Below the pieces are notes generated by a model. That model did no database searches and had not been told where the DNA came from. It saw only the letters and a list, made by a program, of their open reading frames with translations. From NCBI GenBank assembly GCA_963831085.1, contig CAWHOT010000002.1:986941-1050940 (forward strand): a DNA stretch of 64,000 nucleotides, given 5' to 3'. Origin of the DNA: an uncultured Acidobacteriaceae bacterium (GTDB taxonomy: Bacteria > Acidobacteriota > Terriglobia > Terriglobales > Acidobacteriaceae). The translations under genes were made by a program, and so were the position numbers. The first letter of the stretch is position 1. Each line of letters opens with the position of its first letter. This document shows, piece by piece, positions 26,908 through 28,779 of this stretch.

Positions 26908-28779
26908 ATGAAACTCCGTTTCGCCAGCATGACGGTCGGCCTTGCGCTCGGTGTCACCGCAGCGGTGGTCGTGGCCTGTACGGTCGCCGCCTACGTCTTT
27001 TCGGTTCATCATTTTCAAAGCCTCCTCGAAACCGCGCACAGCAGTGCGCTGGCCGAAGGCGAATTGATCCGAACCGCGCTCGAGCACCAGATGGTGGGGA
27101 ATGACCGCACCCTGATAGCGCAAATGGTCGAAAGCTTCGGTAAACAGTCGCGCGTCGAACAACTCGTAGTTCTGGACCGCACTGGCACGGAACGCTACTC
27201 GAGTAAGCCGGGGACGGCGGGGAATGATTTCCGGATCGACTCTCCCACTTGCCAGGCCTGCCATCGCGATCCGCCGGAACGCCGCGGCTCCAGCCGCGTG
27301 ATCGAGACCCGGGGCGGAACGATTCTGAGAACCGTCGTGCCGATTCGTAACCGCGAGGAGTGCTACCGATGCCACGATCCCCGTCAGAAAATCAATGGCA
27401 TCCTGATTCTGGACTACAACGCCGGGGAGGTCCGCGCCGCGATGACGCAGGATCTGCGCTGGATGGTAGCCGGCACCGGTGCCTTGACCTTCGTCATCGT
27501 GGGAGCCATTGCCCTTGTGATCCGTGTGTCGGTCTTGCGCCGCTTGCAGCGTTTTGAAACCACGGCGCGCCTGATTTCCCAGGGCGATCTGGAACGGCGT
27601 GTGCCCGCGGAAGGCTCGGACACGCTGGCGTGGATGGCAAAGGAGTTCAATGCCATGGCCGACTCGGTGTCAGGCCTGGTTGGCGAAGTACGCACCGAGC
27701 GGGAGCGGCTGGAAACCGTGATCAACAGCATTGATGACGGGATCGTAGTCCTCGACGCGGAACGAAAGATTGTGGCGGCCAACGACGCCTTTCTGCAGCG
27801 AGCCGCCGTCTCCCGCGAGCAGGTTCTGGGCTGCTGCTGCTACGCACTTGAACCGGGGCCGTGCAACCTCTCCGACTGCCCCACCCTCGCCTGCTTGCGG
27901 TCGGGTGGGCGCCAGGTCCGGATCTGCGAACGCAAAACCGGCAACGATACGGTGGCTTGGGAAGAAATCCACGCTTCGCCGATTCTGGATGCCTCGGGGC
28001 GGCTGGTTCAAGTGGTGGAGGTCTGGCGCGACATTTCCGAGCGGCGAGCAGCCGAGGCGAAGCTGGCCGAGTCCCACCGCCTGGCTTCGGTCGGAGTCCT
28101 GGCCTCCGGGTTTTCGCACGAGATGAACACCCCTTTGGCAACGACCCTGATGTGCGTGGAGGGCATCCTCCGCGAGACTCCCCCCGGACAGGGCGGGCAA
28201 ATGGATCAGGCCAGAATCCGTGAGAATGCAACGATCGCACGCGACCAGATCCTGCGGTGCCGCGGTATCACCCAGCACTTCCTGCGCCTGTCGCGCGGAC
28301 AGCGGCATGCCGGAGATATCGTGGACCTCGATGCGGCCATCGCTGGCGCCCGGAGGCTCGTCGATCCGACGGCCCGCGCCAACTCCGTGGACGTCTCGGT
28401 GCGACCATCCGCAACGACCCTGCACGTCCGGGCCGACGAGGCCGAGTTGCAAAACCTGCTGGTCAATCTTCTGCTCAACGCGATTCAGGCATCGAAGCCG
28501 GGCGGCAAGGTTGTCGTTGACACTCAAGGTGGTGATGCTGTGCACATTCGCGTCACTGATGAAGGATGCGGGATTGCCCCGGAATACCGTCAAAAAATCT
28601 TCGAGCCATTTTTCAGCCTTCGCCAGGGCGGCACTGGCCTCGGTCTGTTCCTGTCGCTGAACGCTGTCCGGAGCTGGGGAGGCGACATTCTAGTCGAAAG
28701 TACTCCCGGAAAGGGGTCTATATTCGAAGTCGTGATCCCGGCCATCCATCACGGTCCGCAGCCGAAGGACGGACTATGA
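26908..28779 (+). CDS. Sensor histidine kinase: periplasmic domain with two CxxCH heme-c motifs, HAMP, Cys-rich PAS, HisKA, HATPase
   Basis: TM1 spans aa 8-30 and TM2 ~aa 193-215. CQACH (27250..27264) and CYRCH (27361..27375) lie between the two TMs. H-box is SHEMNTPL. G-boxes are DEGCGI and GGTGLGL. Confidence 0.85.
   Translation: MKLRFASMTVGLALGVTAAVVVACTVAAYVFSVHHFQSLLETAHSSALAEGELIRTALEHQMVGNDRTLIAQMVESFGKQSRVEQLVVLDRTGTERYSSKPGTAGNDFRIDSPTCQACHRDPPERRGSSRVIETRGGTILRTVVPIRNREECYRCHDPRQKINGILILDYNAGEVRAAMTQDLRWMVAGTGALTFVIVGAIALVIRVSVLRRLQRFETTARLISQGDLERRVPAEGSDTLAWMAKEFNAMADSVSGLVGEVRTERERLETVINSIDDGIVVLDAERKIVAANDAFLQRAAVSREQVLGCCCYALEPGPCNLSDCPTLACLRSGGRQVRICERKTGNDTVAWEEIHASPILDASGRLVQVVEVWRDISERRAAEAKLAESHRLASVGVLASGFSHEMNTPLATTLMCVEGILRETPPGQGGQMDQARIRENATIARDQILRCRGITQHFLRLSRGQRHAGDIVDLDAAIAGARRLVDPTARANSVDVSVRPSATTLHVRADEAELQNLLVNLLLNAIQASKPGGKVVVDTQGGDAVHIRVTDEGCGIAPEYRQKIFEPFFSLRQGGTGLGLFLSLNAVRSWGGDILVESTPGKGSIFEVVIPAIHHGPQPKDGL

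Follow-up and report, generated by a model that had tools for sequence, protein, structure and literature searches.

How do bacteria that respire anaerobically sense the potential of their electron acceptors in order to choose among quinol oxidoreductases? The question is an open one; in Geobacter it concerns ImcH, CbcL, and CbcBA. A locus in a soil acidobacterium poses it in concrete form, since there a sensor histidine kinase with two heme c-type motifs (CxxCH) and a Cys-rich PAS domain precedes a sigma-54 response regulator and faces a divergent cytochrome operon. The locus lies in a 64,000-nt stretch of DNA, here called the window, from an uncultured Acidobacteriaceae bacterium (contig CAWHOT010000002.1, positions 986,941-1,050,940, assembly GCA_963831085.1). 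Our analysis was computational and drew on sequence comparison, fold prediction, and synteny. It leads us to think it probable that the kinase is a dual-input redox sensor which, together with the sigma-54 regulator, switches on the divergent cytochrome operon. The elements of the kinase and its partner are as follows.

26908..28779, + strand: sensor histidine kinase, 623 aa (open reading frame [ORF], translation, Pfam domains)
27001..27459, + strand: periplasmic sensor domain (aa 32-184), predicted to adopt the sCache/PDC fold of heme-c sensors (hydropathy, AlphaFold2 [AF2], Foldseek, profile matches)
27091..27093, + strand: Met62, invariant in alignments
27250..27264, + strand: first heme-c motif, CQACH, aa 115-119, TGCCAGGCCTGCCAT
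27361..27375, + strand: second heme-c motif, CYRCH, aa 152-156, TGCTACCGATGCCAC
27703..28050, + strand: cytoplasmic PAS domain, aa 266-381 (Pfam PAS_4, E = 2.4e-16; AF2; Foldseek)
27838..27894, + strand: four-Cys motif of the PAS core, C311-x7-C319-x4-C324(P)-x4-C329 (alignment conservation)
28776..30137, + strand: NtrC-type sigma-54 response regulator (Pfam: REC, AAA+ with GAFTGA, and HTH_8, a Fis-type helix-turn-helix [HTH])

In order, the kinase comprises a first transmembrane segment (TM1), the periplasmic sCache/PAS-like domain with its two CxxCH motifs, TM2, HAMP, the four-Cys PAS domain, HisKA, and HATPase. Pfam places HAMP at residues 208-254, PAS at 266-381, HisKA at 398-465 (with H404), and HATPase_c at 510-612; the H-, N-, and G-box residues are invariant in homolog alignments, and the catalytic residues are intact. 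Kyte-Doolittle hydropathy gives transmembrane segments at aa ∼8-31 and ∼185-207 (peaks at aa 3-36 and 183-214), with Lys/Arg before TM1 and the string RVSVLRRLQR after TM2, followed by HAMP. Because of this hydropathy, the positive-inside flanks, and the HAMP domain after TM2, residues 32-184, including both motifs, are assigned to the periplasm. An earlier note on this DNA had described CQACH and CYRCH as lying between two transmembrane helices, the kinase as coupled through an ATGA overlap to an NtrC-type sigma-54 regulator, and the pair as facing a Rieske/cytochrome b/9-heme operon. These descriptions hold. Both motifs are found where it had placed them, topology prediction puts them in the periplasm and not in the cytoplasm, the start of the regulator (28776) overlaps the stop of the kinase as ATGA, the regulator domains are confirmed, and the ORFs and Pfam matches confirm the divergent minus-strand genes.

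Does the periplasmic domain belong to a family of heme sensors? As judged from profiles and models, it is a member of the heme-c sCache/PAS-like sensor family of GSU0582/GSU0935 and PF21563. In a single-sequence phmmer search of PDB sequences, CYRCH and its flanks align with the heme site of 3B47, the sensor domain of GSU0582. A profile of 32 diverse homologs matches 3B47 with E = 2.5e-9 and 3B42 (GSU0935) with E = 3.5e-7, in an alignment that runs from the N-terminal helix, with its Met, to the last strand and includes the heme site of both. In it, Met62 (within LEHQM) is matched to the Met-Met pair that both PDB sequences have in the Geobacter helix, and is aligned with the helix Met (Met60) of GSU0935. 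Where CQACH stands, the 3B42 alignment has a gap of 10 residues, so that the motif is part of an insertion of ∼10 residues relative to the monoheme domain. The AF2 model of aa 32-186 (predicted local distance difference test [pLDDT] 84, predicted template modeling score [pTM] 0.80) shows the topology to be expected, a long N-terminal helix and a five-stranded sheet; the helix that joins strands 2 and 3 carries motif 1, and a short turn leading into the last strand carries motif 2. Searched against the PDB with Foldseek, this model matches the sCache domain of WalK (TM-score 0.61-0.66), 3B42/3B47, KinD, CitA, and DctB. In Pfam, PF21563 (Mcp40H-20_sensor) is precomputed on many kinase homologs of >80% identity, and PF11845 (Tll0287-like) matches the kinase below threshold.

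The family profile also matches the diheme cytochrome NapB (3ml1_B, E = 0.003) over kinase aa 103-162 (∼27214..27393), with a similar spacing of the motifs. Such a match could mean that the two-heme segment came from a fragment of a diheme cytochrome, or it could be mere motif bias. The score is borderline, and the motifs themselves bias it, so we set a NapB-like origin aside.

Is the pair of motifs itself more than a coincidence? A scan of 1.84 billion cluster representatives with kinase aa 30-200 yielded 798 proteins at E ≤ 1e-3; 111 of the best 150 of these have two CxxCH motifs 37-38 residues apart, and the rest of the best 150 are mostly fragments or carry Cx4CH at the second site. All 51 full-length homologs (28-62% identity) retain motif 2, and 50 of them retain motif 1; M62, R141, G164, and D169 are likewise invariant. 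Since both motifs are kept with constant spacing across homologs, the pair is not a product of chance. The earlier note had named two checks that bear on this point. Conservation of the motifs in orthologs proved near-invariant down to ∼28% identity and across several phyla, and the homolog search for a diheme sensor domain returned two-motif proteins from many phyla.

The spread of the sensor can be followed at the DNA level as well. A back-translated pattern for the motif-2 region, scanned over contigs of one genome per species, hit at least 119 stretches; every one of the 119 matches listed falls in an ORF that fits the sensor profile, and two motifs are present in 111. Represented among these matches are Acidobacteriota, Thermodesulfobacteriota/‘Deltaproteobacteria’, Anaeromyxobacter/Myxococcota, Chloroflexota, Nitrospirota, Planctomycetota, and Binatia. 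Within Acidobacteriota, the domain is encoded by 97 of 301 genomes and 68 of 186 genera, and two motifs are present at 45 of 47 acidobacterial loci. It comes in a long subtype, that of the window, with two CxxCH motifs and a PAS domain, and a short subtype with CxxCH plus Cx4CH and no PAS, which is the commoner one in Acidobacteriota (29 of the 47 loci). The genome of the window encodes a paralog of the short type elsewhere (C1:233540..235216; L003 9544..11220), a kinase of 558 aa with CYGCH and CSNAECH and without PAS, which sits directly downstream of cytochrome c, 4Fe-4S dicluster (Fer4), and NrfD genes and before a sigma-54 regulator of its own. The full cassette was also seen on contigs of two unexpected bins, a Gaiellales metagenome-assembled genome (MAG; L085) and an Enterobacteriaceae-labeled MAG (L101); the first of them is actinobacterial and has both a regulator and a promoter of the sigma-54 type. 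These two occurrences may reflect mis-binning or lateral transfer.

What does the pair control? The genes that it faces, and the DNA between them and the kinase, hold the following features.

26373..26708, - strand: 111-aa single-transmembrane protein, first gene of the target operon
25897..26361, - strand: stand-alone cyclic nucleotide (cNMP)-binding-domain protein, 154 aa, no HTH (Pfam cNMP_binding; conserved beside the small ORF, i.e., the 111-aa gene)
25370..25831, - strand: Rieske protein (Pfam)
24288..25373, - strand: cytochrome b (Pfam)
23027..24313, - strand: membrane-anchored cytochrome c with nine CxxCH motifs (Pfam)
26753..26738, - strand: candidate sigma-54 -24/-12 promoter, TGGCATACCACGTGCG, TGGCAT-N5-GTGC, with correct GG-N10-GC spacing, 45 nt upstream of the small ORF
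26837..26852, no strand: palindrome CTGAC-N6-GTCAG, candidate enhancer-binding site (upstream activating sequence, UAS), ∼85-100 nt upstream of the promoter (rarity in the window, conservation)

The Rieske, cytochrome b, and 9-heme genes (23027..25831) are predicted to encode the regulated quinol oxidoreductase. We compared the DNA upstream of the small ORF at 69 nonidentical loci, with random windows from the same loci as controls. Within 260 nt upstream of the small ORF, 86% of the loci have a -24/-12 match that scores at least 18/21, compared with 4.6% of the controls, and 46 of 59 good matches lie at -42 to -60. A perfect CTGAC-N4-7-GTCAG occurs in 70% of the loci versus 2.6% of the controls, usually at -141 to -146. 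In orthologs the palindrome thus stands ∼95-100 nt upstream of the promoter, which is the usual distance for an enhancer-binding protein. Within the 64-kb window, the pattern CTGAC-N4-8-GTCAG has two matches where 0.28 are expected. The other match (CTGACCCATGTCAG, 25003..25016) falls within the regulated operon itself, in its cytochrome b gene, and is probably there by chance.

Two further strings in the intergenic region call for comment. A sigma-54 promoter candidate considered earlier, at 26805..26820 (TGGCAGTCCGGTTGTT), was rejected: the position conserved across orthologs is 26738..26753. A TGGCAC-N5-ATGGCG-like string, in minus-strand reading, occupies 26885..26900 just upstream of the kinase start and recurs at ∼8 related Acidobacteriaceae loci; it is perhaps part of the 5′ region of the kinase gene and not of a promoter for the divergent operon.

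The neighborhood of the kinase tells a similar story at a larger scale. Our survey covered 47 loci, each with at most 20 kb of context. At nearly all of them the kinase is followed by a sigma-54 regulator, and an NrfD/Fer4 or Rieske/cytochrome b module lies within 9 kb of the kinase at 37, compared with a background of ∼2.4%, the share of the window's own genome that is equally near to such genes; the enrichment is ∼30-fold. The five-gene arrangement of the window, divergent from the kinase, is found at no fewer than ∼20 Acidobacteriaceae/Terriglobales loci. At three of five distant annotated loci, the kinase and regulator stand beside a gene for a ∼110-aa transmembrane protein and then one for a ∼160-aa cNMP-domain protein, downstream of which come a multiheme cytochrome and either a Fer4/NrfD or a molybdopterin/Fer4/NrfD module. 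The genome of the window encodes one rpoN and several cytochrome c assembly genes. The suggestion in the earlier note that the pair controls the facing operon therefore gains support from two sides, the conservation of promoter and palindrome at 69 loci and the linkage to quinol-oxidoreductase modules. On the whole, the reading of the locus in that note is largely borne out.

The two leader genes of the operon deserve separate mention. Homologs of the small ORF were found at L004, L006, L008, L038, L039, and other loci, and in 62 of the 119 8-kb snippets among the matches listed. Its ∼110-aa product has a conserved C-terminal motif, LLxQIExxVRxEQxAAExF...LH. Together with the ∼155-aa cNMP-domain gene, it opens regulated operons across phyla (∼60 contig loci), whichever respiratory module comes after, and the two proteins may be accessory signaling or assembly factors. 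The window also contains a second Rieske/cytochrome b pair on the minus strand (∼56553..57871; C2:1043493..1044811). This makes the complex beside the kinase an additional bc-type module, probably one that is expressed conditionally.

Is there a second input on the cytoplasmic side? The AF2 model of the PAS domain (pLDDT 83) has the canonical PAS fold, with LOV domains and DosP as its best Foldseek matches (TM-score ∼0.75). The earlier note had pointed to a dense Cys patch at 27832..27926. The patch is real, comprising C309, C310, C311, C319, C324, C329, and C340, but its coordinates were off by about one base (C309-C340 is 27832..27927), and the run of three Cys is conserved only in part: C309 and C310, like C340, are specific to the Terriglobales lineage. 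In an alignment of 22 PAS sequences, by contrast with those lineage-specific residues, C311, C319, and C324 (always followed by Pro) are nearly invariant and C329 is invariant. Among 91 PAS-bearing relatives, the full C..C..CP...C pattern is present in 65 and three of the Cys in 14. In the model the four Cys occupy the stretch that joins the first two strands to the central sheet, where cofactors of PAS domains are usually bound. The PDB sequence and fold matches of the PAS domain include no Cys-cluster or iron-sulfur (Fe-S) PAS, only generic PAS, LOV, DosP, and WalK domains. From its conservation, the four-Cys site is plausibly an Fe-S or metal site.

Put together, these elements suggest how the system could work. 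Heme would be attached covalently at both motifs by the cell's maturation system. By homology with GSU0935, heme 2, at CYRCH, would switch between a high-spin or open state and a low-spin state ligated by Met62 upon reduction or ligand binding. Heme 1, at CQACH on the inserted helix, would be a second redox or ligand center that extends or tunes the response. Movement of the N-terminal helix and TM2 would then be relayed through HAMP, and passage of helix movement through TM2 and HAMP is general to histidine kinases. On the cytoplasmic side, the four-Cys PAS domain (C311/C319/C324/C329), probably with an Fe-S cluster or metal, would report the redox state of the cytoplasm. The integrated signal would set autophosphorylation at H404 and phosphotransfer to the cotranslated regulator. 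Finally, the regulator would bind the CTGAC-N5/6-GTCAG palindrome and activate the -24/-12 promoter of the divergent operon; this step is supported by the conservation of both sites, and the partner regulator is the presumed occupant of the palindrome.

It is useful to contrast this system with those already described. Like GSU0582 and GSU0935 (3B47, 3B42), the kinase has its sensor domain in the periplasm between two transmembrane segments followed by HAMP, an sCache/PAS-like fold, a CxxCH at the family position before the last strand, and a Met on its N-terminal helix; in reduced GSU0935, the heme has Met60 as its distal ligand (PMC8396549). In contrast to these one-heme chemoreceptors, it is a histidine kinase with an extra CxxCH, and identity to them is only ∼20%. 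An additional heme motif has been noted in several homologs of the GSU0582/0935 sensor, namely, Gsu0591 and Gsu0599 (Londer et al. 2006), Adeh_2011, and Adeh_3383 (Pokkuluri et al., PMC3831638), and GSU0599 also appears in a 2021 review, as a two-component protein that has two heme motifs (PMC8396549). The kinase of the window likewise is a two-component protein with an additional CxxCH, which here precedes the family motif by ∼37 residues. The named Geobacter proteins do not appear among the cluster members listed, which are all MAGs (Desulfatiglandales, Acidobacteriota); because only MAG names are listed there, the link to GSU0599 is one drawn from the literature. Anaeromyxobacter genomes are among the pattern matches, and Anaeromyxobacter-type relatives, unlike the window kinase, have no PAS Cys.

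The closest functional parallel comes from Geobacter as well. There, the sigma-54 response regulator BccR (GSU0598) is divergent from the cbcBA operon, which is served by a sigma-54 promoter, opens with hypothetical genes, and codes for b-type and multiheme c-type cytochromes; BccR is needed for the strong induction of cbcBA as the potential of the medium falls during Fe(III) reduction (bioRxiv 10.1101/2021.04.15.440034). By locus-tag order, GSU0599 would adjoin the BccR gene. The two systems share a REC/sigma-54 AAA+/HTH regulator divergent from a cytochrome quinone-oxidoreductase operon with a -24/-12 promoter. They differ in the target, which here is Rieske/cytochrome b/9-heme (NrfCD-like modules in relatives) and not CbcBA, in the leader genes, which here encode the small transmembrane and cNMP-domain proteins, and in the order of genes, with the kinase preceding the regulator. 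By analogy, the acidobacterial system may work like BccR-cbcBA with a different respiratory module, as a close functional analogue of it.

Precedents also exist for conserved Cys in the cytoplasmic PAS domain of regulators that respond to redox conditions, in anaerobic or microaerobic settings. In NreB, a kinase with a [4Fe-4S]/[2Fe-2S] cluster, the Cys are spaced C-x2-C-x11-C-x2-C. OrpR of Desulfovibrio vulgaris is a sigma-54 activator whose PAS domain holds a [4Fe-4S] cluster on C52/C61/C65 (PMC8359166), so that with OrpR the sigma-54 connection is shared too. The PAS domain of the kinase departs from both in the number and spacing of its Cys, C-x7-C-x4-CP-x4-C. The perchlorate system PcrS/PcrR was considered as a heme-sensor analogue and rejected, since PcrS has no heme motif (PMC3884062).

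Several points weigh against the reading of the kinase as a dual-input redox sensor of the divergent operon, and some of them are the ground of the alternatives discussed below. First, the kinase scores 24.0 bits against PF21563, below the cut-off of 27. Second, we infer heme attachment at motif 1 solely from the invariance of its CxxCH; the homolog alignments offer no conserved candidate for a distal ligand of heme 1, and in the literature we found neither biochemical nor structural work on any member with two motifs. Third, the cis-regulatory sites of the window deviate from the usual pattern, with a spacer of N6 in the palindrome where most orthologs have N5 and a -12 box of GTGC, not TTGC. 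Finally, about 10 of the 47 surveyed loci have no respiratory module nearby, and two of the five distant loci (L005 and L007) have neither the leader genes nor such a module.

The alternative that survives best concerns the PAS Cys. These may form a structural zinc site or act as a thiol/disulfide switch, not an Fe-S site, in which case the kinase would effectively have one sensory input, the periplasmic hemes. Retention of the four Cys in most PAS-bearing relatives, across phyla, and their modeled position where PAS cofactors normally bind speak for a cofactor, as do the Fe-S PAS precedents in the sigma-54 regulation of anaerobes. However, the Cys spacing fits neither OrpR (C-x8-C-x3-C) nor NreB, 12 of the 91 PAS-bearing relatives (∼13%) have two of these Cys or none and keep the remaining architecture, and the whole short subfamily does without PAS. 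We regard this alternative as quite possible, if short of an even prospect.

A second alternative concerns the signal. The GSU0582/Tll0287 family has lately been reclassified as ‘sCache_heme’ in a preprint (Deshpande et al. 2026, PMC12889525), according to which its signaling members (DUF3365/Tll0287/GSU0582) are NO-sensor-like rather than O2 or redox sensors; the signal of the kinase may therefore be a gas. The Foldseek matches of the kinase's periplasmic domain agree with this reclassification. The preprint makes no mention of a second heme in the family. Under this alternative, the periplasmic hemes would bind a diatomic gas, nitric oxide (NO) and possibly carbon monoxide (CO), and would not report potential, so that the kinase would be an NO sensor in a nitrosative or denitrification response. 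GSU0582 and GSU0935 do bind NO and CO, with displacement of Met60 (PMC8396549), and Met62 is invariant here. However, the operons linked to the kinase encode quinol oxidoreductase and multiheme modules (Rieske/cytochrome b, NrfCD-like), among which no NO or nitrite reductase was recognized. Moreover, it is a drop in redox potential, in the course of Fe(III) reduction, to which the Geobacter analogue responds, and a second heme together with an Fe-S-like PAS domain suits the sensing of potential better than that of gas. We thus consider gas sensing rather unlikely.

Finally, it is very improbable that the CxxCH motifs carry no heme and form disulfides or a metal site, or that the pair controls genes elsewhere and stands beside the bc-type operon by coincidence: heme loading and operon control are predictions from sequence and some loci lack a nearby respiratory module, but motif 2 has a homologous counterpart in a heme-c site defined by crystallography, both motifs keep their C, C, and H almost without exception, respiratory modules are linked ∼30-fold over background, and the sigma-54 promoter and palindrome are conserved before the operon.

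The dual-input redox sensor therefore remains our preferred reading, and it is worth separating what it adds from what was known. The sensor family is known but thinly studied, and its two-motif form had previously been noted in Geobacter and Anaeromyxobacter. New here are the wide spread of the two-heme subclass, the finding that it is almost always paired with sigma-54 regulators and quinol-oxidoreductase modules, the conservation of the leader genes, the promoter/enhancer pair with its conservation across genomes, and the conserved four-Cys PAS domain. In the literature, no diheme Cache domain has been characterized, nor has a kinase that joins a periplasmic heme input to a cytoplasmic Cys-cluster PAS domain. 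The two-heme Cache kinase and its sigma-54 partner are closely as well as widely linked to quinol modules, with a recognizable promoter and enhancer site, in Acidobacteriota, Desulfobacterota, Myxococcota, Chloroflexota, Nitrospirota, and others. The locus thus offers a candidate sensor together with a defined cis-regulatory target in bacteria that are abundant in soil and peat.

A broader proposal can be framed, which we hold to be doubtful as it stands. The kinase could be the prototype of a modular ‘respiratory potential rheostat’ that recurs across phyla, a cassette of diheme Cache sensor, Fe-S PAS domain, sigma-54 activator, small transmembrane protein, and cNMP-domain protein placed before interchangeable quinol-oxidoreductase modules. 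The modules under its control would be of the Rieske/cytochrome b/multiheme, NrfCD-like, and molybdopterin enzyme kinds, and the hemes would set the redox window, with no binding of gas. If this proposal were true, the cassette would be the long-sought sensor that directs metal- and humic-respiring bacteria to their inner-membrane pathway.

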